Shown here in pieces: positions 253 to 63,915 of a DNA stretch of 64,000 nt. Position 1 is the first letter of the stretch. The number at the start of each line of letters is the position of its first letter. The position numbers were made by a program, and so were the translations under genes. The notes below the pieces were generated by a model. The model worked only from the letters and a program-made list of their open reading frames with translations, did no database searches and was not told the DNA's origin. This stretch comes from Methanothermococcus sp. Ax23. GTDB lineage: Archaea; AGJL01; Methanococci; Methanococcales; Methanococcaceae. Location of the stretch: positions 512,001-576,000 of the forward strand of contig NZ_CP157522.1 in NCBI RefSeq assembly GCF_049075655.1, in the 5' to 3' direction.

Positions 253-1911
253 ATGGCAATGAGCTTAAAGAAAATCGGAGCAATGGCAATTGGAGGAGCT
301 ATGGTAGCATCCGCATTAGCAAGCGGTGCGATGGCAGCAGCTACAACATCAGGAGATGTTGCAGGATTCATGAAAAATGTAGTTAAAGACGGACAGCCAA
401 ACGTAGATATTGTAGTTGGTTCAAACGCAGCAGCAATGGACGTTGTTTCAGCAGCTGACGTTGCAGCAAAAATCGGTTCAATGTGCTACAAAACAGGAGC
501 AGTTACAGATGGAAGTGCTGATTTAAATGTTCATGTTTCATCAGATGCTAGTAAAGTAGAGTTCAACACAAGTAGTACTGGAAATATGACATATGCAGTA
601 ACTCCGGATGATGGGGATTATCCATTAACAAGCGGTGTAAATTATAGTGGTAAGACATATTACGCATCTAACGACATTACAAAAACATTATCCACATTGA
701 TGAAAATTGATGATGTAGATTTAAAAAATATTTATTCAGTAAATGATGACGATGGTATTGAATTAGGATTTTTCGCAATGAAAAATGAATCAAATGAGAT
801 TGGTGTTGATTTAGTAGGTTATGCATCAATAGTAACTGCTGATTCCTCATTAAATACAAACAATACATACTTAGCCCCTGGAGTATTGATACCATTCTTA
901 GGACAGCAATACATGTTTGTTAAAGCAGATGCAGACAATGAAGATTTAATAATCGGAAAATTAGCATATGATGGAGTATTAGGGGAAGGGGAAACCCAAG
1001 ATTTAGGAAATGGATACACGGCTAAAGTAAAGACAGTATTGGAATCCACTACAAGTGGAGCAGCTCCAAAAGTAGATGTCCAAATATTAAAAGATGGTAC
1101 TGTTGTAGCAGAGAAGTTTGATTATGCCAATGCTACAAAACCATTGGTATTAGTTAGCGGTCCTGTGGGAATAATAGTTACAAATGCATATAAAAACGTA
1201 GCAGCAACTACAGGATATGCTGATTTATATTTAGTGAAAGATGTAAAGAAATTACACTTAGGAGATAAGTACGAAGGAGATTACAAAATATATGCAGTAG
1301 TTCAAGATCCAACTAATAATCAAATAAAAATTGAAAAAACTACCGATATCACAGATAGCGGTGTGAGTATAAAAGGCGAAGGTAAAGTTAATAACAAGGT
1401 AATTTGTGGTATTGCATTAGTAGATGATACAGATCCTACAAAAGATGACAATATATTAAGCTCTAAGGGAGATGAATTCTCAGCAATAGATAATTACTTT
1501 AAATTAAAAGTAGATAAAGTTGTTGATTCTACCACTGGTACCTATAAAATATATGCTTATTCCGATGTATCAAAAGAAGCAACATTAAACATCGGTCAAA
1601 AAGAAAGTGTGTTAAATGCAGACATTACATTAAAAGGTCTCAAAGCAGATGCACAGCAAGCAGTTCCAGTAACAGCTCCAATTGCAAAATTAGACACAGA
1701 AGTTTCATTAGACAGCGGCAAAAACTTAATCTTAATTGGAGGACCTGTTGTAAACAAATTAACAAAAGAGCTCCAAGATGCTGGTAAAGTTTCAATCGAC
1801 AACACAAGCCCAGCAACATTAGCAGTTGTAGATGACAAAGTATTAGTTGTTGCAGGTGGAGACAGAGACAAAACAAGAGAAGCTGCATTAGACTTAATCA
1901 AAAACTACTAA
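253..1911 (+). CDS. S-layer protein
   Basis: Methanococcal S-layer N-terminus MAMSLKKIGAMAIGGAMVASALASG, DVVSAADVAAKIG and C-terminal LILIGGPVVNK...VAGGDR. Confidence 0.95.
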   Translation: MAMSLKKIGAMAIGGAMVASALASGAMAAATTSGDVAGFMKNVVKDGQPNVDIVVGSNAAAMDVVSAADVAAKIGSMCYKTGAVTDGSADLNVHVSSDASKVEFNTSSTGNMTYAVTPDDGDYPLTSGVNYSGKTYYASNDITKTLSTLMKIDDVDLKNIYSVNDDDGIELGFFAMKNESNEIGVDLVGYASIVTADSSLNTNNTYLAPGVLIPFLGQQYMFVKADADNEDLIIGKLAYDGVLGEGETQDLGNGYTAKVKTVLESTTSGAAPKVDVQILKDGTVVAEKFDYANATKPLVLVSGPVGIIVTNAYKNVAATTGYADLYLVKDVKKLHLGDKYEGDYKIYAVVQDPTNNQIKIEKTTDITDSGVSIKGEGKVNNKVICGIALVDDTDPTKDDNILSSKGDEFSAIDNYFKLKVDKVVDSTTGTYKIYAYSDVSKEATLNIGQKESVLNADITLKGLKADAQQAVPVTAPIAKLDTEVSLDSGKNLILIGGPVVNKLTKELQDAGKVSIDNTSPATLAVVDDKVLVVAGGDRDKTREAALDLIKNY

Positions 1912-1940
1912 ATTCTTTAACTTTTTTCTTTTTTTATTTA
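1912..1940 (+). terminator. oligo-T archaeal terminator
   Basis: T-tracts immediately after the S-layer stop codon. Confidence 0.5.
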
Positions 1941-2046
1941 ATAATATATTTATTAATTTAAATAATTAGATTAAAATTTTTAAATAATAATGCCCATAAT
2001 GAGAAGAATCTCATTAAAAGTGAAAAAAACGATATAGATAAATTAC

Positions 2047-2253
2047 TATAAACCGCCAAGAAGGTTCCAACAGCTTTTAGCTGTTGGACGAAAGGCGGTC
2101 ATTATATGAAAATAAAATATAACCAGTCCAAGTATCTATGGGTAGCGTTTGTAAATACTCTACTGTCTCAGAGTTTGGAAGTACATAAGGTAACCTTAAC
2201 CTCCTAATGAAGATAGGAGTAGTAGGCTTGGTAATTTAATAGGGTTAAAACCC
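2047..2253 (+). mobile_element. degenerate, truncated IS200/IS605-type mini-element (copy A)
   Basis: TTAC|tataaaccgcc left end, hairpin ccaacagc-tttta-gctgttgg, shared core accagtccaagtatctatgggtag; right end missing, abuts tRNA 3' end. Confidence 0.7.
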
Positions 2254-2254
2254 A

Positions 2255-2330
2255 TAGCGGGGCGAAGATTTGAACTTCGGATCTCCGGGTTATGAGCCCG
2301 GCGGGATGGGCCTGGCTACCCTACCCCGCT
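2255..2330 (-). tRNA. initiator tRNA-Met (CAT)
   Basis: AGCGGGGTAGGGTAGCCAGG...GGGCT CAT AACCC...GTTCAAATC; A1-U72 and three G-C pairs in the anticodon stem. Confidence 0.95.
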
Positions 2331-2417
2331 TCTTTTAACTTACTCGCAAAATAAAGAAGTAATATGTAATATATAAAGTTTATTGTTATGTGGTATAATT
2401 AAGCACAACCGTATCTA

Positions 2418-2603
2418 TTATTTAAAAAACATCATACCAACATAAATCGCCAATATTATCAGCATCATAAGAAAAAACATCTGCTGACTTCTAACCATTT
2501 TTTTTCTCTTTTTTAAATATTCTTCTTTGCATTTCTCAGAGCAGAACACTTCCTCAGGCGGAATAGATATTCCACAATTTAAACAATGTTTATGTTTTTC
2601 CAT
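2418..2603 (-). CDS. DUF2116-like Zn-ribbon membrane protein
   Basis: HKHCLNCG...FCSEKC followed by a C-terminal TM helix. Confidence 0.8.
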   Translation of the reverse strand: MEKHKHCLNCGISIPPEEVFCSEKCKEEYLKKRKKMVRSQQMFFLMMLIILAIYVGMMFFK

Positions 2604-2625
2604 AAAATGTCACCAAAATTACTTA

Positions 2626-3309
2626 TTACTCATCTGGAACTATTACAGTTCCATGATGCTCACCAGTTATGGCATTTAATATTTCACCCGGAGCTCCTTC
2701 AATTACCACAGTTTTTAATTTTGCCCTATCTATAATCTTAGATGCAAGTGGGTCGATTATGGACGAAGAGCCTGCGGCTATTGATGCAGAACCTGTAATA
2801 TTTAGGAGCTCTTTTGTTGTTATTTTTGTTAGTTTTTTTGCATCTTCATATTTTCTCGGGTCTTTATCATAGACTCCATCAACATTTGTAGCTATAACCA
2901 ATAAATCTGCGTTAATATACTCTGCCAGTGAAGCCGCTACTGCATCTGTTGTATGTGCAGGATGAGTCCCACCCATTACAACGATTTTATTTAGATTTAA
3001 AATCAATTCTGCTTCTTTAAAGTTTTCTGGAACCTTTTTTATAACATAATTTCCAAGAGCAGACATCAAAAGCATGCTGTTCATTCTTGTGGCTAGTATT
3101 CCTATTTCATCACAAAAAGCCTCATTTGTAAATTCTCTGGCAACAGAAATGTAGTTTCTCGCAGTATTTCCGCCGCCTACTACTATGCTCAATTCATTGC
3201 CCATGTCTTTTATTTTTTTAAATACCTCAGCATATTCTTTTAACTTATCTACCGACGCTCCTTCTTTTGGCATTACAACCGAACCGCCCAATGCAAAAAC
3301 TATCCTCAT
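2626..3309 (-). CDS. pyrH: UMP kinase
   Basis: LGGSV, VVGGG, GGTHPAHTTDAVAA, TNVDGVYDKDP motifs. Confidence 0.95.
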   Translation of the reverse strand: MRIVFALGGSVVMPKEGASVDKLKEYAEVFKKIKDMGNELSIVVGGGNTARNYISVAREFTNEAFCDEIGILATRMNSMLLMSALGNYVIKKVPENFKEAELILNLNKIVVMGGTHPAHTTDAVAASLAEYINADLLVIATNVDGVYDKDPRKYEDAKKLTKITTKELLNITGSASIAAGSSSIIDPLASKIIDRAKLKTVVIEGAPGEILNAITGEHHGTVIVPDE

Positions 3310-3480
3310 ATTAAGACCTCTATATTAATTTGTAAATAAATATAAAAGTTAAAATTAATTTCTAAAAATTTTATAAACTAATATTATATAAATTATACAC
3401 TCATAACATAAAAATAAGTATCAAATTCTGGAAAAATAATAAAAATAGAAATAAAAATTAATTAGATAGATGCAAAGTAA

Positions 3481-3684
3481 TTACATTTTTAATGCCATTT
3501 TTACATCTTCAGCTTTTACTGTTTTTCTACCAGCATGTTTTGCTAATTCTGCGGATTCTTTTGCAATATCCATTGCAATGTCTTCTAATGCTTCAACTAA
3601 TACCTTAGCTGCTTCTTCACTTACTCTTTCAGCACCTGCTTTTTTTAATATTCTTACTACTGGTGCAACTGGAAGTTCTGCCAT
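3481..3684 (-). CDS. archaeal histone
   Basis: [20 protein letters not shown]...[11 protein letters not shown] histone fold. Confidence 0.95.
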
Positions 3685-3728
3685 CATATCACCTCAGGGT
3701 TTTGTATTTTTAAATTTAGAAAAAGATA

Positions 3729-3744
3729 TATATAAATCTTTCGG
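3729..3744 (-). promoter_or_regulatory. BRE/TATA promoter of histone gene
   Basis: CCGAAAGATTTATATA on the minus strand. Confidence 0.7.
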
Positions 3745-3859
3745 AAATAATCCATATTTAATCCTACATTCATCATATATGAACTACCCATTATTTGATT
3801 ACATATATTCAAGCACTGAGTCAATTAATTAATCAATAACATAATAATAACACGTCCCC

Positions 3860-4234
3860 CTGACCTACTCCAACGAGTGAACTCGTTGGGTTCTCGCTTA
3901 CGGTAGTAAGCGAGCAACGAAATCATGAAGTGATTTCGTCTAATTTTAGTAGGGTTTAACCCTACACGGGTGGCCAAGCCCACTACCCCTATCCCCGTTT
4001 AGGAGATTCAGGGCTACCTTTTGAATTTCCAACCACTACCAGCGGTAGAGTTTTCACTAACCCTACCCATAGATACTTGGACTGGTAGCGTTACTTACTA
4101 CTAATCTTCACATATTTATATTTTACTACTTACTAGCCGATATAATGTCCGCCTCTCATCCAATCTCATAAGAGATTTTACAAAACTATGTTTTGTATAA
4201 CGATTAAAATCGTTGGCTTTCCCGGCGGTTTATC
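3860..4234 (-). mobile_element. non-autonomous IS200/IS605-type mini-element (copy B, 375 bp)
   Basis: Near-identical to 12127-12498 and 45341-45665; TTAC left flank, subterminal hairpins, GGTCAG right end, no transposase or TnpB ORF. Confidence 0.85.
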
Positions 4235-4305
4235 GTAAAGTCATGGATATATTTTTATAAATTCATGTCGGTATAATAAATAGAGCATAATATTGTGGTG
4301 ATACT

Positions 4306-4869
4306 ATTAACATTAACAAAAAATTCAATAAAAAGGAGATAATTGAGTGGGCAGTTTTTTTAATTGTGCTCTTAATAGTTTGGACCCATGTAAATGTTGT
4401 TGTGTCCAACAGCATGTATCCTGTGATGGAGAGGGGAGATTTTGTAATCGTAGAAAATGCAAATTGGGAATTCAACCCAAACGATGTTCAGGTTGGAGAT
4501 ATTGTTGTATATAAAGCGCACTGGCCAAACTATAGGGAAAATAATATGGAATATATGACCAAAATAGACAATAAAACATTAATTGCATTTAACGGAAATA
4601 AGGTTAAACCAGTAATACATAGAGTTATTGAAAAAATAGAACTTAATGGTAATATTTATATTATAACAAAAGGGGACAATAACCCCACTTATGACCCGGA
4701 GCTCATATCCATAAACCAGATAAAACAGAGAGTTGTGTCGATAAATGGAAAACCGCTGGTAATTCCGCATATTGGATATATCTCAATATTACTAAAAGAA
4801 TACATATGGTTGGTAATATTGATAATTATAGTATGGTATGCCTACGATTATTTAAAAAAGAAAAAATAA
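4306..4869 (+). CDS. signal peptidase I (Sec11/S26); probable ATT start
   Basis: VVSNSMYP catalytic Ser, VIHRV, TKGDNN; frame is open upstream to GGTGAT-ACT-ATT. Confidence 0.9.
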   Translation: MNINKKFNKKEIIEWAVFLIVLLIVWTHVNVVVSNSMYPVMERGDFVIVENANWEFNPNDVQVGDIVVYKAHWPNYRENNMEYMTKIDNKTLIAFNGNKVKPVIHRVIEKIELNGNIYIITKGDNNPTYDPELISINQIKQRVVSINGKPLVIPHIGYISILLKEYIWLVILIIIVWYAYDYLKKKK

Positions 4870-4919
4870 GTAGAGAAAACAACATTAGGAATAATAAAAA
4901 GAAAATAAAAAGAAAAAAT

Positions 4920-6098: not shown

Positions 6099-6099
6099 A

Positions 6100-6264: not shown

Positions 6265-6404
6265 AACTATCACTTTGATAATTAAATACACATATAAAAA
6301 TAGCTATTATTTCTTGTATTAAATTATATTTATAGATATTTAACATAATTTTTTATTATGTTATGATATTATATATTATTTAAAAAAGATATATCCTATT
6401 TTTA

Positions 6405-8454: not shown

Positions 8455-9408
8455 TTAATCTCCTTTTAACATTCCAATTTTAGCAAGTAATGCACTGAGC
8501 TGTATTCTTTCATTTGCCCCTTCCACTATTCTAAAATCACATTCTCCAATTGCTTCAACGAGAGATACCTTTTTTCTTTCTTCAATATCTAAATTAGGAA
8601 TCTCCCTAAACATCTGTAATAGTATGTCTTCTCCACTCATTCCCCAATCAATCATTAAGTTATATAGGAGCTCTCTTGCTTCAATGAATTTGTTGTTTAG
8701 TGCGAGCTCTACCATTTTTATAATCTCATCTGGTCGTGCCTTTGATGATACTTTATAAACTACTTCATCATCGATATTTTTTGAAACTGTTGCAGCGGTT
8801 TGCAATACGTTTATAGCCTTTCTTAAATCCCCTTCTGATACATAGATTATTGCATCAATACCGCTATCATCAATGGTAATATTTTCATTTTCTGCAATTT
8901 CTTTAAGTTTTTTTATAATATCTTCCCGTTTCAGTGGTGAAAACCTAAATATAGCACATCTTGATTGTATCGGAGGAATAATACGGCTTGGAAAGTTGCA
9001 ACTAAGGATAAATCGGCATATATCGGAGTATTTCTCCATAGTTCGCCTTAATGCGTTTTGAGCATCGCTTGTAAGGGCATCGCTTTCATCCAAAAATATT
9101 ATCTTAAATGGTGCATCCCCAATTGGCTTTGTTCGTGCAAAATCCTTTACCTTTGTTCTTATTACATCAATACCTCTTTCATCCGAACTGTTTAATTCTA
9201 AAATATTGTCTCTCCAATTTTCACCAAATAAATCCCTTGCAAGACATAATGCCGCAGTCGTCTTTCCAACGCCGGGCGGACCGCTAAATAGCATATGCGG
9301 CATGGATTTCTTTTTTACATAGTTTTTAAGCCTTTTTATAATTTCATCATGCCCTGTAATTTCATCCAATGTTTTTGGACGGTATTTTTCTACCCATGGT
9401 TTTTCCAT
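8455..9408 (-). CDS. rfcS: replication factor C small subunit (intein-free)
   Basis: PWVEKYRP, GPPGVGKT, ELNSSDERG, LDESD, SRC. Confidence 0.97.
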   Translation of the reverse strand: MEKPWVEKYRPKTLDEITGHDEIIKRLKNYVKKKSMPHMLFSGPPGVGKTTAALCLARDLFGENWRDNILELNSSDERGIDVIRTKVKDFARTKPIGDAPFKIIFLDESDALTSDAQNALRRTMEKYSDICRFILSCNFPSRIIPPIQSRCAIFRFSPLKREDIIKKLKEIAENENITIDDSGIDAIIYVSEGDLRKAINVLQTAATVSKNIDDEVVYKVSSKARPDEIIKMVELALNNKFIEARELLYNLMIDWGMSGEDILLQMFREIPNLDIEERKKVSLVEAIGECDFRIVEGANERIQLSALLAKIGMLKGD

Positions 9409-19527: not shown

Positions 19528-19685
19528 ACTTTCACCTTCTTTTTAGTAATTATATTTATACTATAAATTAATATTTAAAAATTAGGTATTGGTGAAATAT
19601 ATAAATAAAAATTACATAATAAGAACTGAAATATGTATGAACATAAACATGCGAGATGGAAAATAACAATTTAATTGGTGATATC

Positions 19686-21017
19686 ATGAAGGTTTTATTG
19701 GTAGGTGGAGGAGCTCGGGAACATGCCATTGCAAGAGCTCTGAAAAAAAATGAGTCTGTAAAACTATACACTCTCATGAAGAACAAAAACCCGGGAATAT
19801 TCAGAATCTCAGAAAAAGTTTCATTAAACAGTGAAACAGATTTGGATGCAGTGAAGAAATTTGCAGAAGAGGTAAAGCCTGATTTGGCAGTGATTGGTCC
19901 AGAAGCTCCTTTGGGCGTTGGGGTTGCGGACATGCTTTGTGAGATGGGCATACCAACAGCAGGACCTAAAAAACTCCCAGCACAAATTGAAACAAGCAAA
20001 GAGTTCATGAGAAATCTCTTTAAAAAATACAGCATAAAAGGTTCATTAAAATACGGTGCATTTAACAGCTACGATGGAGTAGAGGAGTTTATCGATGAAA
20101 TGACAAATTTAGGAATGGATGTTGTTGTTAAACCTGTTGGATTAACAGGAGGAAAGGGAGTAAAGGTTGTCGGTGAGCAGTTAAAGGACAACGAAGAGGC
20201 AAAGGAATATGCAAAGGAGATATTTGAAAAAAGCATCGGCGGTGGAAAATTAATAATTGAGGAAAAACTCGTTGGTGTTGAATTCACACTCCACGGTTTT
20301 GTTGATGGAGAAACTATCGTATTCATGCCACCAGTTCAAGACCACCCTCATGCCTATGAAAATGACGAAGGTCCTATTACCGGTGGTATGGGTTCATACT
20401 CCTGCCCAGACCACAATTTGCCATTTTTAACAGAAGATGATTTGAACGAAGCAAAAGAAATAATGAAAAATACAGTGGAAGCAATTAAAAAAGAAGTAGG
20501 GGCATATCAAGGATTTTTATACGGCCAGTTCATGCTCACAGTAGATGGTCCAAAAATAATCGAATACAATGCAAGATTTGGAGACCCTGAGGCTATGAAT
20601 TTGCTCCCTATATTAAAAACTGACTTTGTGGAAGTATGCAATGCAATAGCAAACGGCGAATTAAATAAATTAAACATAGAATTTGAAAACAAAGCAACAG
20701 TTTGTAAATATGTGGTTCCAGAAGGATATCCATTAAATCCAGTGAAAGATAGGGAAATATTCGTTGATGAAGATAAAATAAAGGAAACTGGTGCAGTATT
20801 GTTCTATGCTTCCATAAACGAGAAGGATGGAAAGTTGTATATCACAGGTTCAAGAAGTGCGGCGGTTGTTGGAGTAGCGGATACTATTGAAGAAGCAGAA
20901 AAAATAGCAGAAAATGCCATACAGCACATAAAGGGAGATGTATTTTATAGAAAAGACATTGGAACATTGGATTTAATAAACAAAAGAATAGAGAGAATGA
21001 AAGAACTTAGGAAATGA
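19686..21017 (+). CDS. purD: phosphoribosylamine-glycine ligase
   Basis: [31 protein letters not shown]. Confidence 0.97.
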
Positions 21018-21183
21018 ATGAGCTCAGAAGTGGCAACTAAAAATTTATATATATAACCCATAGGAATATACTGAATTTATGAGATACTAAACTTTATAAA
21101 TAACTTATAGTATATTATTAGAAATATTAATAATAGGAATAATTACATTATAAAAAGAGTGATAAAGTAAAAGAGTGGATACG

Positions 21184-37129: not shown

Positions 37130-38662
37130 TTACAATCCTGCATGTTTAATTCCTAATGCTTTTAACTCCACTTCGCTTAATCCTATTCCTCTCAATCTAT
37201 CTCTGTTTCCTCTCAAACTTTCAATGGAGTTAATTCCTGCGGCACCAAGCAATTCCTTAATTTCAAGAGTCCATGCTTTTATAAGGTTTGCAACTCTTTC
37301 AGCACCTTCTTCAACATCTAATCTATTTACGAGCTCAGGTTTTTGAGTTGCTATACCCCAAGCACACTGTCCTGTATAGCATCTACCACATACTCTACAT
37401 CCCATTGCCACCATTACTGCTGTTCCAACATAAACGGCGTCTGCACCAAGTGCTATTGATTTAAATACATCGGCGGAGTTTCTAATTCCTCCACTTGCTA
37501 TAATACTTATTTCGTTTCTTACACCTTCTTCTCTTAATCTCTCATCAACTGCTGCAATAGCCATTTCAATAGGTATTCCTACATTATCCCTAAATACCTT
37601 AGGAGCAGCTCCGGTTCCTCCTTTGAATCCATCGATTACAACTGCATCGGCATCGGATGTTGCTATACCATTTGCAATAGCTGCAACATTATGGACCGCA
37701 GCAATCTTAACAAATATTGGAACCTTCCATCTTGTAGCTTCTTTTAAACTTCTTACAAGCTGTGCTAAATCTTCAATTGAGTAAATATCATGGTGCGGAG
37801 CTGGGGAAATAGCATCACTACCTTCTGGAATCATCCTTGTCATTGAAACCTCAGCAGATACTTTTTCTCCTGGAAGGTGTCCTCCAATTCCAGGTTTTGC
37901 TCCCTGACCAATTTTTATCTCAATTGCTGCCCCTTTTGAAAGATACTCTTCATTAACTCCAAATCTACCACTTGCTATCTGTGTAATGATATTGTCTGCA
38001 TAAGGATAAAGGGTTCTATGTAATCCACCTTCTCCTGTTCCCATGAATGTTCCACATTCTTTAACTGCCCTTGCCATTGCCTGATGGGCATTTAATGATA
38101 GAGCTCCGTATGACATGTGAGCTATCATAATTGGTGTTTCCAACTTTAAGTTTGGAGCAACTTTGGTTTTTAATTTTGCTTTTTTAATTTTTTTGCCGTC
38201 AATTTCTTCTTCAACAAAATCGAATTCTAATTTTTTAGGTTTCTTACCTATGTATGTCCTTAACTCCATAGGTTCTCTTAATGGGTCGATGGATGGATTT
38301 GTAACCTGGCAAGCATCTAAAACGATTTTATCGTAGTAAATAGGATATTCTTTTGCATTTGCCATACCACTTAATAATATACAGCCTGTTCTGGACTGGT
38401 TTATTATATCTTCCCTTGCTTCCTTTGTCCATAATGGGTGTTCTCTCCAACATATTGGGTTTTCATGAATTGTTATTGCATCCCTAGGACACATTGAGAC
38501 ACATCTTTGACATGCACCGCATCTATTTGAGTATGTTATAATTCTGTCTCTTTCTCTTCTATAAACGCCCCATGAACATTCTTTTACACATCTTTCGCAC
38601 AACATACATCTATCGGGATTAACTTCAACTCTGTATTTTGGTGGAACTGTTGAAGGTATCAT
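37130..38662 (-). CDS. archaeal glutamate synthase FMN-binding subunit
   Basis: MSYGALS, TGEGG, QIASGRFGV, KIGQGAKPG, C..C..C, GIATQ. Confidence 0.95.
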   Translation of the reverse strand: MIPSTVPPKYRVEVNPDRCMLCERCVKECSWGVYRRERDRIITYSNRCGACQRCVSMCPRDAITIHENPICWREHPLWTKEAREDIINQSRTGCILLSGMANAKEYPIYYDKIVLDACQVTNPSIDPLREPMELRTYIGKKPKKLEFDFVEEEIDGKKIKKAKLKTKVAPNLKLETPIMIAHMSYGALSLNAHQAMARAVKECGTFMGTGEGGLHRTLYPYADNIITQIASGRFGVNEEYLSKGAAIEIKIGQGAKPGIGGHLPGEKVSAEVSMTRMIPEGSDAISPAPHHDIYSIEDLAQLVRSLKEATRWKVPIFVKIAAVHNVAAIANGIATSDADAVVIDGFKGGTGAAPKVFRDNVGIPIEMAIAAVDERLREEGVRNEISIIASGGIRNSADVFKSIALGADAVYVGTAVMVAMGCRVCGRCYTGQCAWGIATQKPELVNRLDVEEGAERVANLIKAWTLEIKELLGAAGINSIESLRGNRDRLRGIGLSEVELKALGIKHAGL

Positions 38663-38700: not shown

Positions 38701-38840
38701 GAGCTCACAAGTGAGCGTAGAATATAAAATTGCTTCGCAATTTTAATTTCGGAGCGAAGCGGAGAGTTATAAAAATCACTTCGTGATTTTTATTTAATCG
38801 AAATCAGAGATTTCGATGCTAAAACTCCAAGAGTTTTCCG
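38701..38840. repeat. array of five short palindromic hairpins
   Basis: gctcac-aa-gtgagc; taaaattgc-ttc-gcaatttta; ataaaaatcac-ttc-gtgatttttat; atcgaaatc-aga-gatttcgat; aaaactc-caa-gagtttt. Confidence 0.9.
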
Positions 38841-38913: not shown

Positions 38914-39999
38914 TTATTTTTCAACCCTTGCTATTACCGGCATTCCTGCATCAGGCATCCATACTTTATCCAATTCAGGACATATTTTTCTTATGGCTGC
39001 CTCTTCACTAGATACAAATGTTAAATCGTCTTTTTCAGCAGCAATAAGTGGTCTAAGTTTTATCCTATCTGTTAAGCCCACCATGGCATTTTCCTTTTCA
39101 ACATCTCCATTCATGAACATCATTCCTTCATGGGTACCCACGATTATTCCAAATGGACCGTTTAATGTTGCACCGCCGTATGTCATCCTAATTGCTTCAT
39201 GGATTTTTCTTTCCTCTTCTGGCATGTTGTCTATTTCTTTCCAGAATCTTGGAGCTACGGCACTCAATGCATACTCAACAGGTAGTTTGTGTTTTCTTAT
39301 CAATAAATCAAATATATATGCTACAACCTCTGTATCTGTTAGCATTCTGCATTTGTATCCAAAACTTTCAACATATCTTTTATTTGTTCCATAGCTTGTA
39401 ATTTCTCCATTATGAACAACTGACCAATTCAATAGGTTAAATGGGTGAGCTCCTCCCCACCATCCTCTTGTGTTTGTTGGGTATCTCGCATGCGATAACC
39501 ACATATATCCTTTATATTCATCTAATTTGTAAAATTCTGCTACTTCCATTGGCCATCCTGATGCCTTAAATACCCCTAAGTTCTTACCGCTTGAAAATAC
39601 AAATGCCCCGTCTATTTTATCGTTAATTTCCATAACAATTTTTACCATTGTGTCTTCTTCAACATCCTTGTATTTTTCATCAAAATCATAGAAGAATCTC
39701 CATGGTATATGTTCTTTTTCTAAGATTCCTTCTTTTGTTGGAATCTCCTCGTCTTTAAGCACGTATCCATATTTTTCCAGTGTGTTTTTTACTTTTTCTC
39801 TTATTCTGTCGTAATCTGGTGCGTTATCCAAAAAAACATGTATAGCATAGCTGTCTTTGAACTTTGGATATATTCCATATCCTACATAGCCTGAACCTTG
39901 TCCATTTCCTCTTTCTTTTAGGCTGTCCAGTGCTATGGCTATCTTATCTCCACTTATTAATCTTTTTTTTCTGCTCATAAAACCGATAATTCCGCACAT
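38914..39999 (-). CDS. glutamate synthase Ntn amidotransferase subunit
   Basis: MCGIIG start after GGAGG, HARYPTN, HNGEI, TDTE, DR..LRP. Confidence 0.93.
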
Positions 40000-40162
40000 G
40001 GTAATCCTCCATTTGTGAGTTATACTAATATAAAAAAAGTCATTTATATAGCTTATCAAATAATCATATTAAAAAATTTTAAAAATTTGAATAGATATAT
40101 GATGTTATCATTTTTATATATTTTACCGTTATCAGTATATATTACTAACACATAATGAACAA

Positions 40163-40966: not shown

Positions 40967-40999
40967 CAATATATATTACCATATAGATGCGGTGAGCTC

Positions 41000-46394: not shown

Positions 46395-48122
46395 ATGAGC
46401 GAAGACAAGTATGAAAAAGTAATGGATTTGGCTAAAAGAAGAGGTTATTTATGGAGCTCCTTTGAAATATATGGTGGTATAGCAGGTTTTGTAGATTATG
46501 CACCACTTGGAACAATATTGAAAAACAATATAATTGACACATGGAGAAAGCACTATATTATAAACGAAGAATTTTACGAGATAGACAGCCCAACTATTAC
46601 ACCATACGAGGTTTTAAAAGCATCTGGGCATGTTGATAACTTCACAGACCCAATGGTAGAATGTAAAGAATGTTTGGAATCATTCAGAGCAGACCATATT
46701 ATTGAGGAAAATATCGACATAGACACTGAAGGAAAAACACTTGAAGAATTAAATGAGCTCATAAAAAAACACGACATAAGATGCCCAAAATGTGGTAGCG
46801 AATTTGGAGATGTTAAAAAATACAATTTGATGTTTTTGACTTCAATAGGTCCGGGAGGAAAGAGAACAGGATACATGAGACCAGAGACAGCTCAGGGAAT
46901 ATTCATACAGTTTAGAAGATTGGCAAGTTTTTTCAGAAACAAACTTCCTTTTGGAGTGGCACAAATTGGTAAATCATACAGAAACGAAATTTCCCCAAGA
47001 CAGGGGGTTATCAGATTAAGGGAATTTACACAGGCTGAGGCAGAATTTTTCGTTCATCCTAAAATAAAGAACCATAAGAGATTTAAAGATGTGGAAAATG
47101 ACATAATACCACTTCTTCCAGCAGATAGACAAATGGATGAAACACTGAGCTCAGAGGAAAAAGTAGTAAATATGACATTAAAGGATGCTGTGGAAAAAGG
47201 AATAATAAGGCATGAAACCATTGCATACTTTGTGGCGATTACAAAGAGATTTTTAATGGATATTGGTATCGATATAAACAGATTGAGATTTAGACAGCAC
47301 CTTCCAGATGAAATGGCACATTATGCAATTGATTGCTGGGATGCGGAAATTTACACAGATAGATTTGGATGGATTGAGTGCGTAGGTATTGCAGACAGGA
47401 CAGACTACGATTTAAAGGCACACATGAACCACAGCGGTGTAGATTTAAGGGTTTTTGTAGAATACGATGAACCAAAAGAAATTGAAACCTACGATATTGA
47501 ATTAAACTATAAGGTTGTTGGAAAGGTATTTAAAAAAGATATGAAGCTCGTTGAAAATACATTAAATAACATGGACGATAGTGAAATAGGAAAAATGGTA
47601 AAAGAGCTAAATGAAAATGGAAAATATATTTTAACAATCGAAGATAAGGAGTTTGAGATACTAAACGACTATTTAAAAATAAATAAAACTAAAAAGAAAA
47701 TCTCCGGAGAAAAAGTATTGCCACATGTAATTGAACCGTCCCATGGTATCGACAGAATTACATACTGCCTTTTAGAGCATGCCTACAATGAGGAAGAGGA
47801 TAGAACATATTTAAAGTTAAAACCAGAAGTAGCTCCTGTAAAAGTTGGAGTATTCCCATTAGTCAATAAACAGGGTATGCCAGAAATTGCCATGGAAATA
47901 AAGGATAAATTAAGAAAAAACGGAATAATTGCCGAATATGATGACAGCGGAGCAATTGGAAGAAGATATATGAGAATGGATGAAGTTGGAACTCCGTTCT
48001 GCATTACTGTTGATGGCCAGACATTGGAGGATGGAACCATTACAATAAGACACAGGGATACAAGAGAGCAAATTAGAATTAAAATTGATGAAGTTGTAGA
48101 TTACATCAAAAGAAATATTTAA
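46395..48122 (+). CDS. glyS: glycine--tRNA ligase (alpha2 type)
   Basis: RPETAQG, GKSYRNEISPR, VIEPS.GIDR, IGRRY. Confidence 0.97.
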   Translation: MSEDKYEKVMDLAKRRGYLWSSFEIYGGIAGFVDYAPLGTILKNNIIDTWRKHYIINEEFYEIDSPTITPYEVLKASGHVDNFTDPMVECKECLESFRADHIIEENIDIDTEGKTLEELNELIKKHDIRCPKCGSEFGDVKKYNLMFLTSIGPGGKRTGYMRPETAQGIFIQFRRLASFFRNKLPFGVAQIGKSYRNEISPRQGVIRLREFTQAEAEFFVHPKIKNHKRFKDVENDIIPLLPADRQMDETLSSEEKVVNMTLKDAVEKGIIRHETIAYFVAITKRFLMDIGIDINRLRFRQHLPDEMAHYAIDCWDAEIYTDRFGWIECVGIADRTDYDLKAHMNHSGVDLRVFVEYDEPKEIETYDIELNYKVVGKVFKKDMKLVENTLNNMDDSEIGKMVKELNENGKYILTIEDKEFEILNDYLKINKTKKKISGEKVLPHVIEPSHGIDRITYCLLEHAYNEEEDRTYLKLKPEVAPVKVGVFPLVNKQGMPEIAMEIKDKLRKNGIIAEYDDSGAIGRRYMRMDEVGTPFCITVDGQTLEDGTITIRHRDTREQIRIKIDEVVDYIKRNI

Positions 48123-55264: not shown

Positions 55265-55277
55265 AATATCACCTAAT

Positions 55278-57885: not shown

Positions 57886-57893
57886 TATTTCAC

Positions 57894-58256: not shown

Positions 58257-58260
58257 TATT

Positions 58261-58617: not shown

Positions 58618-58626
58618 AAACCCACC

Positions 58627-58914
58627 TTAAAGAGTAATCACTTGGTTGTATTTTTCCATAATCAAATCCACCGCTGTATCATAGTCAATAAGTTTTGTTT
58701 CTTCGATATTTTCAAACCCTCTTGCATGTGCGTCATCCTGCATTGCATATATTTTATAACCGAGCTCCCTAAGTTTGTTCCTCATGCTTGAAGTTGTGGC
58801 ATAATATATCCCATCTTCTGCAAGAAGAACTCCGTCGTTGCCATCTTTTAATTTTTCCATTACTTCAATGGCATTACACTCAAAAGGAGATTTTAAAAGA
58901 ATAAATAGCGTCAT
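58627..58914 (-). CDS. DsrH/TusB-family protein
   Basis: KSPF, LLAEDG.Y, DD..ARG, IDY...VDL. Confidence 0.88.
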   Translation of the reverse strand: MTLFILLKSPFECNAIEVMEKLKDGNDGVLLAEDGIYYATTSSMRNKLRELGYKIYAMQDDAHARGFENIEETKLIDYDTAVDLIMEKYNQVITL

Positions 58915-58918
58915 TAAA

Positions 58919-59335
58919 TCACCCTATGAAAAGCTGAACTTTTGCATCCATTGCAAGGTCTATAAATTTTGTAGCCCCGACTATTTCCACTCCATCAATT
59001 AAATCCTCTTCTTTTACTCCCATTATACTCATGGATGTGCTACATGCGTAAAGCTTAGCACCTAAATCAATAGCCTGCTGTCGAGATTCCTCAAATCCAC
59101 CAATATTCTGCTTTTTCATTTTCTTTTCCATCATCTTTACTCCCAAACTTCCAAATAATCTATATATTCCCGGAAGTTTAGGCTTAGCATTCTTCTTTAA
59201 TATTTCAAGTCCAAAAAATGTAAAGAATATATGCACCTCCATCCCCATGGACGCACCTATGGTTCCAAGAATAAATGCCATCATAGCTTTATCAAAAGTG
59301 CCTTCTGAAACCACAAGTGCCATCTTATCAGCCAT
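58919..59335 (-). CDS. DsrE2-family protein
   Basis: FFTFFGL, YACSTSM..MG, VGATKF. Confidence 0.88.
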   Translation of the reverse strand: MADKMALVVSEGTFDKAMMAFILGTIGASMGMEVHIFFTFFGLEILKKNAKPKLPGIYRLFGSLGVKMMEKKMKKQNIGGFEESRQQAIDLGAKLYACSTSMSIMGVKEEDLIDGVEIVGATKFIDLAMDAKVQLFIG

Positions 59336-59397
59336 AATATCACCAAATAATAGATAAAAAAATAAAATAAAAAATAATAGTAATAGACATTAAGACA

Positions 59398-59616
59398 TTA
59401 TTTTTTCTTAATTTTGAATGTCAAAACCCCATTTTCTTCGGTCATTTCAAGTAATTCATTTCCTGTTCTATTGCACCATGCTGGAACATCTTCTTTTGCT
59501 CCAACATCATCAGCTATGAGCTCTAAAATCTCCCCTTCTTTTAACTCCTTCATTTTCTTAGCGAGCTCTACAATAGGCATAGGGCATTGTAGTCCTCTCG
59601 CATCCAATGTAGCCAT
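59398..59616 (-). CDS. TusA/SirA sulfur carrier
   Basis: LDARGLQCPMP, D.PAWC. Confidence 0.92.
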   Translation of the reverse strand: MATLDARGLQCPMPIVELAKKMKELKEGEILELIADDVGAKEDVPAWCNRTGNELLEMTEENGVLTFKIKKK

Positions 59617-59652
59617 ATTTACACCTTTCAATATTTAATTAATTAAAGATAA

Positions 59653-59844
59653 TTAAAATTTAACCTTTACAGCCCCTGTTGGACATACATCTTCACAAAC
59701 TCCGCAACCTGTGCATTCATCTTCATGAGCTACAACAACTTTTTCTCCATCTACTTCAAAAACTTCCATAGGGCAGTTTTTTTCACATTCTCCACATTCT
59801 TTTGCTCCTTTACATATATCGTAGTTAATTGTTACGCTTGCCAT
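59653..59844 (-). CDS. ferredoxin
   Basis: C....ECGEC..NCP and CTGCGVCEDVCP. Confidence 0.9.
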   Translation of the reverse strand: MASVTINYDICKGAKECGECEKNCPMEVFEVDGEKVVVAHEDECTGCGVCEDVCPTGAVKVKF

Positions 59845-59921
59845 TTTAATCACCACCATATTTAAGTTATTATTATTTTATTTATTTACTTCATTTATTT
59901 TTTATTTTATTATATTTTAAG

Positions 59922-60275
59922 TTATTCGTTAATTTTAATCGGTTCTTCTGGACCGCCTATTTTTGAAGGATGTGGTGCTTTAATTACAAAGAATTCAAGA
60001 ACATCGCATGTTAAATTTTGAGCAATCATCTTTGTATTGAACGGCAAATGAATTATTGTTCCAGCAGGATATACTTTTGGCTCTTGGCCTTCCAAAGTTA
60101 ATGTCATCTCTCCCTTTACAACTATTAAATGAACCTTTGAGTTTGTAAAGTGCTTAGGTGTGCCTTCTCCTTTTGGAAATATCATATGAATAATTTGAAC
60201 TTCGTCGGTATTAACTATTTTTTCCACAACCTTTGAATCAGATTCAGTTGTAAAATTATATACTGTTTCTATCAT
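59922..60275 (-). CDS. cupin-domain protein
   Basis: PKH, VVKGEM, IHLP. Confidence 0.8.
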   Translation of the reverse strand: MIETVYNFTTESDSKVVEKIVNTDEVQIIHMIFPKGEGTPKHFTNSKVHLIVVKGEMTLTLEGQEPKVYPAGTIIHLPFNTKMIAQNLTCDVLEFFVIKAPHPSKIGGPEEPIKINE

Positions 60276-60352
60276 AATATCACCTTAAAAAAATAAAAGA
60301 TAGTTGGTAGTTAATTATTTACTAGCTAATTACTTATTTCTCATTTTCGCAA

Positions 60353-62074
60353 TTATTTGTTTATCAATCTTTCAATGTCTTCTTCCACTGTTGAGATTAC
60401 TCCTATTCCAAAGTTATCCACAAGAACCTTTGCAACATTTGGTGATAAGAATGCTGGCAATGTAGGTCCAAGAACTATGTTCTTTACACCTAAGTAAAGC
60501 AATGCAAGCAATACAGCAACAGCTTTCTGTTCATACCATGCTACATTGTATGCTATTGGCAAGTCGTTTATGTCTTCCAATTCGAATACTTCTTTTAATT
60601 TAAGAGCAATTACTGCCAGTGAATAACAGTCGTTGCACTGTCCAGCGTCTAATACTCTTGGTATTCCGCCAATGTCTCCTAAATCCAATTTAATGTATCT
60701 GTATTTTGCACATCCTGCTGTAAGGATTACTGTGTCTTTTGGCAATGCCTTAGCAAATTCTGTGTAATACTCCCTGCTTTTATGTCTTCCATCACATCCA
60801 GCCATTACAACGAATTTTCTTATAGCTCCTGACTTCACAGCTTCAACAACTTTATCAGCTAACGCCAATACTTGGTTGTGTGCAAAACCACCTACGATTT
60901 TACCTGTTTCAAGCTGTTTTGGTGGAGCACATTTTTTAGCATGCTCGATTACTTCTGAGAAGTCCTTATTTCCATTTTCATCTTCTGGGATTCTTTTAAG
61001 TCCTGGGAATGCAACGCATCCTGTTGTATATACTCTGTCCTTGTAGCTGTCTTTTGGTGGAACAAGACAGTTTGTTGTCATTACAATAGGTCCATTGAAT
61101 GCTTCAAATTCTGTTACCTGTGTTGCCCATGAACCTCCGTAGTTTCCTACGAAGTGGTCGTATTTTTTAAATGCTGGGTAGTAATGAGCTGGCAACATTT
61201 CGCTGTGTGTATATACATCTACACCAGTTCCTTTTGTTTGCTCTAAGAGCTGCTCTAAATCTTTCAAATCGTGCCCACTTATTAATATACCAGGATTGTT
61301 TCTAACCCCGATATCTACCTCAGTTATTTCAGGGTGCCCGTAGGTTTCAGTGTTTGCTTTATCCAATAAAGCCATTGTATCTACTGCATACTTACCAGTT
61401 TCAAGTGCAAGAGCTGTTAAGTCATCAGCTGATAAGCTGTCATCCATTGTAGCAACAAGTGCCTTTTTTATGAATTTATGGACATTTTCATCAGTGTATC
61501 CCAATACCATAGCATGATGCATGTATGCCCCTATACCTTTAATTCCATAGGTTATTAATTCCCTTAAAGACCTTACATCTTCATTTTCTGTTGCTTGGAT
61601 GGACACTTCTTTTGAGTTTGCCTTTGCAATTATATCGTCGTCATTTTCTGGCATCCATGTTGCATAATCAGGGAGCTCATCACAACATCCTGAACATGTG
61701 CATTCTGACTTTAATTTTTCTCTAAGTTCTAAACCTTTTTTAATTTTCTTTATTATGTCTTCATCGTCGAAATTCACATTTGTAACTGTTGTGAAAAGTG
61801 CATCTACAATATATTTATCTATTTCTTCGCTGGATTTTCCAGTTTTTTCACTTACATATGCCAAACCTTTTACTGTATATATTAAAAGGTCTTGAAGATT
61901 TGCCACATTGTCCTTTTTGCCACATACCCCCATTGTTGTGCATCCAGTGTTCCTTGCAGTTTCCTGGCACTGGTAGCAGAACATTTTTGTTGGTCTTGTA
62001 TTGTTTGATTCCATAGTTTTACCCTCCAATATTTTATCTACAATTGATTTTATTTTATTTTGTATATTATTCAT
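60353..62074 (-). CDS. hcp: hybrid cluster protein (hydroxylamine reductase)
   Basis: MFCYQCQET...GC...GVCGK, SGHDL, THSEMLP, GCDG, GQCND, WYEQK. Confidence 0.97.
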
Positions 62075-62201
62075 ATTTTCACCTATGCAGTTAATATTTA
62101 TTTCTTTTAATATATATAATCATTATTGTTAAAAAATCGTTAATTTTTAATATAATTATTATTATTTTTATTACTATTTTTATGATAAAGTATTATTATA
62201 T

Positions 62202-62912
62202 TTAGTTTAGTAATTTACCATCAATTGATACAACACGTTTGTTTATTTCGCAGTCGATTCCATCAAGTGCCTTCTTCACTAAATTATACATTGCTGAACA
62301 GCAGGGAACGCTCATAATTACAACATCTACTTTCTTTATGCCGTTTAATTTGACTATTGCCCTTATTTTTTCGGCATATCCTGAAATATCATCCAATTTT
62401 GGGCATCCAATCGCCACAACTTTTCCCTTTAAGAATTTTTTGTGGAAATTTGCGTATGCGAATGGAACACAGTCCGCCACTATTGCCAATTCAGCATTTT
62501 TGAAGTAGGGTGCCATCGGATTTAGAAGGTGAAGCTGAACAGGCCAGTTTATTAGTTCTGAGCTCAGTTCAATATCATCATCTTCATGCCCAACATCTGC
62601 CTCTCTATTAAAGGTTCTTGCTACTGAGCTCGGACATGAATGACCTGCATGACTGCCACATCCACCTTTCTTTTCACCCTCATTTATCTCAACTTCTTCT
62701 TTTATTATATTCAAGGCATCAACAGGACATACATCCAAACAGGAGCCCACTCCATCGCAGTAGATTTCTTTATCCTTATTCACCTTTACCTTCCCCGTTT
62801 CCTCGTCAGGAATTAGGATATTTTCCTCGCAGGCATCAATACATAGCCCGCATTTCTCATATCCTATACATTTGTCCTGGATTACCTCAACTTTATATTT
62901 GGTTATTTTCAT
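62202..62912 (-). CDS. Hcp-associated Fe-S protein
   Basis: Two ferredoxin motifs, NWPVQL, ADC, GCPKLD, VPCC. Confidence 0.85.
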   Translation of the reverse strand: MKITKYKVEVIQDKCIGYEKCGLCIDACEENILIPDEETGKVKVNKDKEIYCDGVGSCLDVCPVDALNIIKEEVEINEGEKKGGCGSHAGHSCPSSVARTFNREADVGHEDDDIELSSELINWPVQLHLLNPMAPYFKNAELAIVADCVPFAYANFHKKFLKGKVVAIGCPKLDDISGYAEKIRAIVKLNGIKKVDVVIMSVPCCSAMYNLVKKALDGIDCEINKRVVSIDGKLLN

Positions 62913-63208
62913 AATATCACATTGCATAAATTTTATTTTTTAAATTTCACAATATTAAAGGTGTATTTAATAGTATAAAAAGATTTTTGACTGTTTTATG
63001 TCAAAAAAAGCTATAAAAATTGTTCTTTTTCATTCATGATTTGATATAATTGTTATGAAAAAAATTTAAAAATTTAATATTGTTTAAAAAATTAGATAAA
63101 TATAACGAAATAACCTTAAAAAGTTATTTAAAATAGAAATACGACAGCATGCTTAGTTTATACTATTTTCCGGACATATGTCTCCTTTACACATTTGATT
63201 TAAAATCG

Positions 63209-63490
63209 TTAATTTGGAAATCTCAGAGCTCCGTATCGGCATGCACTTAGACACAGTGAGCATCCTTTTACACAGTTGGATTTATTTTTTACTACGACTT
63301 TGCCATTTTCAATATCATAAACCCCGTTCCTGCAAAATTTATAACATAATGTGCAGCTTTTACACTTATCGTAATCGATTGTAGGCCCCCATACTTCATT
63401 CAATGATTTATCATTTCCTTCTATTTCTTTTTCTCCATTTTTATTTTCCCTATTTTTCCTTTTAAATATATTCATTATTTTTGAAAACAT
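63209..63490 (-). CDS. ferredoxin
   Basis: CKSCTLCYKFC, CVKGCSLC...C. Confidence 0.85.
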   Translation of the reverse strand: MFSKIMNIFKRKNRENKNGEKEIEGNDKSLNEVWGPTIDYDKCKSCTLCYKFCRNGVYDIENGKVVVKNKSNCVKGCSLCLSACRYGALRFPN

Positions 63491-63507
63491 AATACTCCCC
63501 TAATAAT

Positions 63508-63915
63508 TTAAAAAATAACTACTTTATCATATATTTTTCCATCTATTTTATCCACCTTATCATAAAATTTGGAAACATCTTTTGAATTGCCCTCTACAAT
63601 AAAAATCTCTACTTTTTTATTTTTTCCGCAGGATGTGGTAATATACGACTGGTTTATTGATTTTACTATGTCGTTATGTTCAAAGTATGCCTTACTCATT
63701 TCTTCCATTGCCTTTTTTGTTGGAGTATATACAACGATAATAATGCCACTAACATTACCATCTTTATTCAACTGATTGCTTTCTAAAACATGCTTTCTTG
63801 TGGCATCCCTTATGAGCTCACTTCTACTTGAATATCCCTTCTTTTCTACAACTTCATCTATCTCCTTTAAGAGAAACTTTGGGAAGGATAAACTAATTCT
63901 TTCAACATTTACCAT
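63508..63915 (-). CDS. NikR-like ribbon-helix-helix regulator
   Basis: RISLS.P..LL..ID, YSSRSELIRDA, E.FIVEG. Confidence 0.85.
   Translation of the reverse strand: MVNVERISLSFPKFLLKEIDEVVEKKGYSSRSELIRDATRKHVLESNQLNKDGNVSGIIIVVYTPTKKAMEEMSKAYFEHNDIVKSINQSYITTSCGKNKKVEIFIVEGNSKDVSKFYDKVDKIDGKIYDKVVIF

Follow-up and report, generated by a model that had tools for sequence, protein, structure and literature searches.

GAGCTC as a highly iterated palindrome in Methanothermococcus sp. Ax23 and a patchy set of its relatives

Why does a single short palindrome recur in an archaeal chromosome far more often than its composition would predict? The question is raised by a 64-kb stretch of the chromosome of Methanothermococcus sp. 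Ax23 (G000:C1:512001-576000, hereafter the window; G000 is a 1.67-Mb genome in two contigs), in which the hexamer GAGCTC is widely dispersed. An earlier note on this DNA had put the number of copies at about 89, where 4-5 would be expected at about 31% GC, and had likened the word to HIP1 (GCGATCGC), the highly iterated palindrome of cyanobacteria. Our count was exactly 89, the first copy starting at 1768 and the last lying at 63814-63819, and all 14 positions that had been given as examples were among those counted. In 100 dinucleotide-preserving shuffles of the window the mean was 3.99 copies (standard deviation 1.94, maximum 9) and 0 of 100 shuffles reached 89; with a GC content of 33.1% in the window and 31.9% in the main contig of G000, the estimates of composition and expectation were sound. 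The octamer GGAGCTCC was present in the window in 13 copies, compared with 0.24 expected from the shuffles. The analogy with HIP1 held as well, since GAGCTC was the top hexamer, occurred in all reading frames, and was in excess both in non-coding DNA and over shuffled codons. GAGCTC is a genuine highly iterated palindrome, an archaeal variant of that phenomenon.

Excess of GAGCTC at the DNA level

The G000 genome contained 2089 copies of GAGCTC, 2085 on the chromosome (about 1 per 800 bp) and 4 on the second contig. The observed/expected ratios were 16.7, 19.7, 13.1, 4.9, and 1.6 for Markov models of orders 0 to 4, and under the low-order nulls the word ranked first among the 4096 hexamers, followed by words that overlap it. 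Under the 4th-order null, which the earlier note had proposed as a control, the excess remained but shrank to 1.6x; that null uses pentamers that are mostly made of GAGCTC itself. The nine classes of one-letter variants had 13-470 copies each. GAGCTA, GAGCTG, and GAGCTT, which had been suggested for comparison, numbered 175, 155, and 163 on the + strand, GAGCTC being about 12-fold commoner. It had also been said that the signal would dissolve if the frequency of AGCT fully explained it. Among the 5049 chromosomal AGCT tetramers, 2085 lay in GAGCTC and the other 15 NAGCTN words accounted for only 126-325 each; the AGCT count multiplied by the flanking base frequencies gave 128 copies versus the 2085 observed. 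AGCT frequency as the sole cause was thereby ruled out. The information content of the sequences flanking GAGCTC did not exceed 0.21 bit at any position (38% of the sites had G at -1 and C at +1), and such nearly information-free flanks ruled out a hidden repeat family. The second contig (G000:C2, 7.7 kb, 27% GC) was sparser in the word than the chromosome, its four copies being about 10x the composition expectation.

Genes were called as non-overlapping open reading frames (ORFs) of at least 100 aa, a crude procedure that is adequate for an AT-rich genome and that yielded 1503 genes covering 84% of the G000 chromosome. Chromosomal sites numbered 1915 in called genes and 170 outside. In the window 79 of the 89 sites were inside genes and 10 outside, the genic ones being read as GAG-CTC in 42 cases, xGA-GCT-Cxx in 24, and xxG-AGC-TCx in 13. 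Two of the four sites that had been described as intergenic, at 21020 and 38701, were indeed so, whereas the status of the other two, at 40994 and 46297, is uncertain, as open frames of 181 and 109 codons run across them. Synonymous codons were then shuffled within each gene in 30 replicates, which keeps the protein sequence and the codon usage of the gene. This gave 192 ± 11 expected sites versus 1916 observed, a 10x excess, in place of the disappearance of the enrichment that would have explained it by codon usage. The excess was present in each frame, with 1085 versus 81 for GAG-CTC (13x), 611 versus 84 for xGA-GCT-Cxx (7x), and 220 versus 26 for xxG-AGC-TCx (8.5x). Of the 3879 Glu-Leu dipeptides, 1085 were written GAG-CTC, compared with 38.9 expected from the codon usage elsewhere. 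CTC made up 4% of the Leu codons outside the motif, and 1085 of the 2773 CTC codons (39%) came after GAG, a proportion with which the word distorts codon-pair statistics. In strict non-coding DNA, defined as having no frame open for at least 60 codons (111 kb, 22% GC), 64 copies were found versus 2.5 expected (26x), the highest count of the 960 hexamers of the same composition. The synonymous shuffle and the Glu-Leu codon-pair counts ruled out codon or dipeptide bias as the cause, and the opinion of the earlier note that such bias alone was unlikely agreed with an excess that was seen in every frame and outside coding DNA as well. The excess acts at the DNA level, and coding constraints do not explain it.

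It is hardly credible, then, that the word is a passive by-product, be it of codon or dipeptide bias, of AGCT frequency, of a hidden repeat, or of G+C being squeezed into those words that restriction systems leave unavoided. The strong avoidance of many other palindromes by G000 and a maximal-order Markov excess of only 1.6x would suit such an origin, but the excesses that persisted after synonymous shuffling, in non-coding DNA, and relative to AGCT run counter to it, as do the uninformative flanks and the neighbouring words that were not raised. Moreover, the related genome G005 shares much of the same palindrome avoidance, yet has 14 sites, and the synonymous positions inside the word were the most conserved of all Glu-Leu codon pairs (see below). 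The palindromes that G000 avoids include all hexamers with GATC, CTAG, GTAC, and ACGT, the GTNNAC family (GTATAC, GTGCAC, GTTAAC, GTCGAC), and the CTNNAG family (CTATAG, CTGCAG, CTTAAG, CTCGAG, the last with 8 copies). This avoidance outruns the resident systems that were detectable (two PF01555 and a few PF02384 methylase genes).

Along the chromosome the word was scattered randomly and evenly. The spacing was near exponential (mean 797, median 532, coefficient of variation 1.09), windows of 10 kb held 12.5 sites on average with a variance of 13.0 and none had fewer than 5, and the counts per gene were Poisson-distributed (dispersion 0.95), 531 of the 1503 genes being without a site versus 509 expected. 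The spacing and per-gene statistics showed no regular spacing, no clustering, and no preference for gene starts or ends. Xu et al. (2018) describe for HIP1 a periodicity on a scale of tens of kilobases; in the spacing statistics and the 10-kb window counts of GAGCTC, both Poisson-like, no periodicity was seen. Close pairs of sites were as frequent as random scatter predicts. Such a pattern is what one would expect of a process working in situ on the whole genome over time. Within genes the density was flat and dipped at the gene starts and ends. These profiles bear on the notion that GAGCUC is an RNA signal for processing, modification, or pairing and that the DNA palindrome is incidental. A palindrome is present in the transcript of either strand, transcription covers most of the genome, and sites in non-coding DNA may belong to untranslated regions; nothing positive was found for a signal of this kind, however, and the similar enrichment in all frames and in strict non-coding DNA, the flat density with dips at the gene ends, and a longer perfect palindrome in the relative G010, which better suits a reader of duplex DNA, make it very improbable.

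Retention, turnover, and distribution among relatives

Among 31 related genomes, five were enriched, with 2089 (G000), 2070 (G012), 1645 (G010), 1515 (G013, of another genus), and 1321 (G003) copies of GAGCTC, and the remaining 26 had 4-229 copies; in the group of 40 genomes the enriched ones were likewise 5 of 40. For site-by-site comparison, G010 was the only other genome that was complete, while G012 (400 kb), G005 (C1:1-400000, half of that genome), and G013 were partly sampled. Orthologues were taken as reciprocal best hits and compared in codon alignments, giving 274 pairs over 253 kb with a third-position identity of 72% for G000-G012, and 294 pairs with a third-position identity of 56% for G000-G010. 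Several of the comparisons below rest on tens of events.

Sites were strongly retained between G000 and G012, 290 being common out of 379 in G000 and 360 in G012 (76-81%), compared with 45% for background hexamers. Where Glu-Leu was conserved, GAGCTC was kept in 175 of 198 cases (88%), other codon pairs in 166 of 358 (46%), and the commonest pair, GAATTA, in 81 of 128. At the greater distance of G010, 100 sites were common to both genomes (of 444 in G000 and 292 in G010, versus a background of 22%). At conserved compatible peptides the joint use of the word, frame by frame, was 51 versus 28.0 expected (p 5e-9), 40 versus 29.8, and 6 versus 1.3. This sharing above independence argues that the enrichment is old, with turnover. 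With G005, only 1 of 337 sites was common. Polarisation with G010 as the outgroup suggested 21 losses and 15 gains, most cases being uninformative because the synonymous sites are saturated. Amino-acid change at GAGCTC sites was no higher than in the background.

The 159 sites present in only one of G000 and G012 differed from their counterparts by 1, 2, 3, and 4 letters in 25, 28, 28, and 13% of cases, compared with 64, 25, 7, and 2% for ordinary non-identical hexamers. Intermediates were thus short-lived. We read the pattern as strong retention of the intact word combined with fast decay of rare G+C-rich codons once it is broken; evidence for multi-base events, for which the pattern was also considered, it is not. 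GAGCTC is maintained by fixation bias.

The single-letter differences were unevenly placed. Among the synonymous transitions between G000 and G012, 15 fell at the two central G:C pairs and 1 at the two outer pairs (binomial p 5e-4), although the same changes were about equally frequent outside the motif (GAG/GAA 51%, CTC/CTT 60%). In Glu-Leu contexts the observed/expected ratios were 0.32 for GAGCTT and 0.44 for GAACTC, the transition neighbours, compared with 0.61 for GAGCTA and 0.93 for GAGCTG, the transversion neighbours. The asymmetry can be read in two ways: the central C mutates more readily, for instance through base flipping or modification, or variants whose AGCT core is intact are restored or eliminated sooner.

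As to what produces the bias, our preferred reading is put forward tentatively and with more doubt than confidence. GAGCTC, or the octamer GGAGCTCC in one sister lineage, would be a short DNA word that is made and kept chromosome-wide by an ongoing sequence-specific fixation bias, either weak selection at each site or biased conversion, working against AT mutation pressure and codon preference. A lineage-specific factor other than a canonical DNA methylase would read the word as a symmetric site of 6-8 bp, and the word might serve as a tag on the cell's own DNA when genome copies, or different cells, recombine or exchange DNA. Such a role has lately been proposed for cyanobacterial HIP1 and is known from bacterial uptake sequences and Chi; a recombination or uptake signal was also among the options of the earlier note.

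The specificity of the word changes between lineages. Across the 40 genomes, GGAGCTCC occurred 1259 times in G010, 184-335 times in the other four enriched genomes, and 1-35 times in the remaining 35. In G010, 1259 of the 1645 sites were octamers, 571x the order-0 and 307x the order-1 expectation, whereas the share was 331 of 2085 on the G000 chromosome, 67 of 472 in the G012 sample, and 7 of 47 in the G013 sample. The unequal share shows that the specificity differs between lineages. In genus g5 (G019-G035), which belongs to a non-enriched sister family, 16-35 octamers were counted per genome versus about 3 estimated from composition; this surplus may be a weak remnant of the process at work in the enriched genomes, or else an effect of Gly-Ala-Pro codons.

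The enrichment is also patchy in descent. In a tree of glycyl-tRNA synthetase (GlyRS), G000, G003, and G012 formed a close trio, while G010 and G013 were two deep, poorly placed branches. Forcing the five enriched genomes together cost 30 log-likelihood units (p-AU, from the approximately unbiased test, 0.009); on this tree the trait must have changed at least three times. Monophyly of the enriched genomes was rejected on this single gene, and with a group that was named after the tree had been seen, so we take the result merely as a patchy distribution with at least 3 changes. Even within the trio the density was variable. G003 had 1321 sites in about 1.4 Mb, fewer than G000, from which it follows that motif density varies even between close relatives. 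Over 12.5 kb (locus L099) G003 and G000 were 87-94% identical in DNA and 98% identical in the GlyRS protein, and had 10 and 14 sites; 9 sites were common, 5 present in G000 only and 1 in G003 only, which are too few events for a comparison.

In some relatives the word is avoided along with its AGCT core. G005 had 14 GAGCTC in total and 180 AGCT per 400 kb, compared with about 1250 in the enriched samples, and loci from three further Methanothermococcus genomes (L100-L102) had 0-3 AGCT per 12-16 kb; AAGCTT was reduced to 12-33 copies in G001, G002, G005, G007, and G008. The near-absence of AGCT implies restriction pressure of the AluI type in a genus that elsewhere multiplies GAGCTC. Where a restriction system of the SacI or AluI type is resident, its target is expected to be avoided, but in G000 GAGCTC was enriched, and avoidance was seen in the relatives instead. 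G005 carries, at C1:46254-48234, a gene for a 254-aa methylase of the PF01555 type and an adjacent gene for a 415-aa protein, inserted between two genes that adjoin in G000 and G012. No homologues of this pair were found in G000, G010, or the 400-kb G012 sample, and it is a candidate AGCT restriction-modification system.

Candidate agents for making and keeping the word

A base modification at the central C of the AGCT core, followed by context-specific repair toward GAGCTC, could also raise the word, one-letter variants being converted to GAGCTC so that it accumulates; very-short-patch (VSP) repair and Elhai's model for HIP1 are of this kind. The preponderance of central over outer changes would be expected if the central C were modified or flipped, or if variants with an AGCT core were quickly repaired, and the transition neighbours were more depleted than the transversion neighbours. 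AGCT, nearly absent from the sister clades, appears to be a restriction target in the genus. GAGCTC can be written as G + AGCT + C, as HIP1 is G + CGATCG + C at a methylase site according to the available text of one paper (PMC4390886), and m4C AGCT methylases are listed for several archaea in the accessible part of another (PMC11033074).

The gene content gave no support to this explanation, which the earlier note had favoured in the form of methylation-directed repair on the AGCT core, or to the co-distributed methyltransferase or Vsr-like nuclease for which it had suggested a search. No such methyltransferase was common to the complete genomes G000 and G010. PF00145 C5 methylases were absent from G000, and the two sub-threshold matches in the genus, of which that of G010 lies in a Trm5/TYW2 tRNA methylase, did not pass the cut-off. 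Vsr (PF03852) had no match in G000, its relatives not being searched and no search being aimed at Mig-type HhH glycosylases. MutS_V matched 5 of 31 genomes and NucS_C 8 of 31, and the five enriched genomes, which had neither MutS nor NucS, were not among them. PF01555 was represented in G000 by two proteins and PF02384 by three or four, and none of the Pfam-detected DNA methylases of this genome had an orthologue in the complete G010 genome. The sole clear DNA methylase of G010, of 446 aa, lies with a neighbouring 217-aa gene in an insertion (G010:C1:206895-208851) that splits genes syntenic in G000, and a homologue of similar size is present in G003. G012, with its 2070 sites, had no PF01555 or PF00145 protein clearly over the cut-off, the weak matches probably being housekeeping enzymes. 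DNA methylase content differs within the close trio, while the enrichment is stable. What the genomes had in common were weak matches to tRNA, rRNA, or protein methylases (Trm5/TYW2, MTS-type, PUA-SAM, THUMP-UPF0020). The canonical C5, N4/N6, D12, and N6_Mtase families (PF00145, PF01555, PF02384, PF02086) were rejected as the co-distributed agent since no DNA methylase was common to the complete genomes G000 and G010; a non-canonical modifying enzyme is possible. The RE_SacI family profile matched nothing, controls included, and was uninformative. The single-molecule real-time (SMRT) methylome of M. aeolicus PL15/Hp, in the portion of the paper available, reports m4C in CTAG, m6A in GTNAC, GCACY, and CGAG, and an inferred m5C in ACGT, and nothing at GAGCTC or AGCT, in a strain whose own GAGCTC enrichment is not established (PMC10113651). 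On these grounds repair guided by modification appears unlikely.

GAGCTC might instead, as the earlier note also suggested for a chromatin or replication protein, be bound by an abundant protein that acts in the nucleoid, in chromosome organisation, or in replication, with selection keeping the density of sites high for chromosome architecture or maintenance; Xu et al. put forward such a role for HIP1. The DNA-level enrichment, the conservation, and the even genome-wide scatter agree with such a role, and a lineage-specific symmetric specificity of 6 or 8 bp is typical of a dimeric DNA-binding protein. On the other hand, about 2000 sites per chromosome copy would demand a very abundant protein, and neither regular spacing nor periodicity was found in the spacings and 10-kb counts. 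Related species lack the word, and in some of them every AGCT is purged, so an essential architectural role is not conserved; the synteny subtraction described below offered no candidate protein, and the asymmetry between central and outer positions is not predicted. A role as a chromosomal binding site is therefore rather doubtful.

A conversion drive in some Methanococcaceae that needs no methylation is a further possibility, and in our estimate quite an improbable one. An enzyme would resolve near-cognates with an AGCT core toward GAGCTC or GGAGCTCC, in heteroduplexes or between the copies of a polyploid genome, and the palindrome would spread as a selfish word does. If this were true, it would be a new kind of archaeal biased gene conversion, a methylase-free counterpart that could help explain HIP1.

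Several observations weigh against our preferred reading of the word as an own-DNA tag. Given the random spacing, there was no sign of selection for even coverage. The ratio of 15 central changes to 1 outer change sits better with a central C that is chemically special than with a plain tag, because a tag that needs the perfect word predicts equal numbers of central and outer variants. A 6-bp word is poor at discriminating foreign DNA, and the known uptake sequences and Chi are not palindromes. None of the 31 genomes matched ComEC (PF03772) or DprA (PF02481), while control genomes did, so a bacterial-type uptake route is not evident; as 0 of 31 does not discriminate between enriched and other genomes, and as an archaeal uptake route of another kind is possible, this point has its limits. 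The reading factor was sought by synteny subtraction, which retained genes common to G000 and G010 and lacking from the corresponding place in the sampled half of G005. About 37% of the G000 genes, those with an orthologue in that half, could be assessed in this way. The subtraction gave 14 genes (a glycosyltransferase, DUF1959, two winged-helix proteins, FolE2, ribosomal protein S11, a ferritin, a desulfoferrodoxin, UPF0147, RtcA, and four without a family), which included no nuclease or methylase, and the factor was not found among them. The presence of a ribosomal protein in the list shows that the subtraction is noisy. Of the five candidates that lacked a clear family, four (three without a family and one winged-helix protein) were rejected as they were also in the non-enriched genomes G014 and G017.

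Known words, low-GC islands, and the window

The available parts of the HIP papers (PMC4390886, PMC5861425) describe a word with much in common with GAGCTC. HIP1, the alternate HIPs, and GAGCTC are all short, G+C-rich, perfect palindromes that are outliers for their length; they occur both outside coding DNA and, in every frame, within it at about 1 per 0.4-1.3 kb, are conserved among related genomes beyond the background, and have an unsettled function. They are also patchy, with lineage-specific extensions or replacements, here the hexamer and GGAGCTCC. Archaea are mentioned 0 times in the text of these papers that was accessible. No description of GAGCTC or GGAGCTCC enrichment in Methanococcales was found in the full-text literature, older subscription papers and supplements lying outside that scope, in agreement with what the earlier note had stated. 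According to the sections available of two studies (10.1101/2024.09.10.611283, PMC13756078), HIP1 reportedly enhances natural transformation and has been proposed to act as an uptake or Chi-like signal. Unlike HIP1, GAGCTC is archaeal (Methanococcaceae) and a different word. HIP1 goes with GATC and CGATCG methylases, as far as the available text on it states, whereas no cognate orphan methylase was found for GAGCTC, and no HIP1-like periodicity was seen for GAGCTC at the scales examined. Deviations from HIP1 are reportedly biased to the first and last positions, following Elhai, and the one-letter differences of GAGCTC, which cluster at the two central positions, are unlike this.

Other words that accumulate in genomes resemble GAGCTC in part. 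The DNA uptake sequences (DUS) of Neisseria and the uptake signal sequences (USS) of Pasteurellaceae occur at about 1 per kb, within genes in several frames, and in lineage "dialects", and build up under a drive that does not depend on any advantage of the single site; they are 9-12 bp long, non-palindromic, and dependent on competence proteins. GAGCTC is like them in density, in its genic sites in several frames, and in its lineage dialects, and unlike them in being palindromic and in the absence of ComEC and DprA from the 31 genomes. To our knowledge, uptake specificity has not been described in archaea. In VSP repair (Dcm/Vsr of E. coli, and the archaeal Mig.Mth glycosylase beside M.MthTI) a repair bias raises the number of methylase targets. 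It fits the central-C asymmetry of GAGCTC, but no Vsr and no C5 methylase were found in G000; the effect of VSP repair on word counts is modest, whereas the GAGCTC excess is 17-fold. Chi (RecBCD/AddAB) is an over-represented short word that marks own DNA for recombinational repair, and is asymmetric and co-oriented with replication. GAGCTC is like Chi in being an over-represented short word and unlike it in being a palindrome without orientation.

Almost all work on highly iterated palindromes has been done in cyanobacteria, where after three decades it is still debated whether HIP1 reflects methylation-linked repair, chromosome architecture, or uptake and recombination signals. GAGCTC provides a second case, in another domain of life, with related genomes that have the word, lack it, or purge it. 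In one lineage the specificity has grown from 6 to 8 bp, and no matching methylase is apparent. These contrasts form a natural comparative experiment and call into question whether words of this type need cognate methylases at all. As only about 40 small genomes are concerned, phyletic profiling could find the reading factor. In the laboratory, SacI would cut the enriched genomes roughly once per 800 bp, provided that its sites carry no modification.

Long motif-free stretches were found only in islands of low GC (26-27%), outside the window. The two longest stretches nearly free of GAGCTC were G000:C1:113847-124945 (motif-free, 27% GC, including a homologue of family-9 glycosyltransferases) and G000:C1:1342926-1355392 (26% GC, one GAGCTC), both being runs of genes for about 350-430 aa, and both look like recently acquired surface-polysaccharide islands. 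A further long motif-free stretch, G000:C1:1198428-1203719, surrounds the gene for a 700-aa PF01555 methylase. Recently acquired DNA would seem not yet to have been marked with GAGCTC; since the motif-free islands are low in GC, the density of the word can flag such DNA.

The sites and site groups of the window that were singled out are collected in Table 1.

Table 1. Positions of GAGCTC and octamer features in the window
Feature	Position	Strand	Remarks
Dispersed GAGCTC set, 89 copies, about 1 per 720 bp, no common flank	1768..63819	.	Counts and shuffles
GAGCTC, intergenic, 3 bp past the end of the PurD-like ORF 19656-21017	21020..21025	.	Longest open frame 43 codons
GAGCTC, intergenic, between ORFs 37130-38662 and 38914-40059	38701..38706	.	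Longest open frame 49 codons
GAGCTC pair, 24 bp apart, within the PurD-like gene	19711..19740	.	Positions from count
GAGCTC pair, 36 bp apart, within ORF 8455-9408 (- strand)	8668..8709	.	Positions from count
Octamer GGAGCTCC, example site	2690..2697	.	One of the window copies
Octamer within the glycyl-tRNA synthetase gene (46395-48122, +), used as phylogenetic marker	46453..46460	.	
Octamer starts in the window	2690, 5314, 7027, 7444, 10819, 14384, 26736, 27667, 32137, 46453, 53084, 54129, 57170		

In public data, the single raw-read run lacked the organism, with 3 reads matching; three contig runs were practically identical to the window, and no read-end pile-ups were seen. The gene content of the window, with S-layer, HMD-like, GlyRS, and PurD genes among others, is ordinary methanogen housekeeping.

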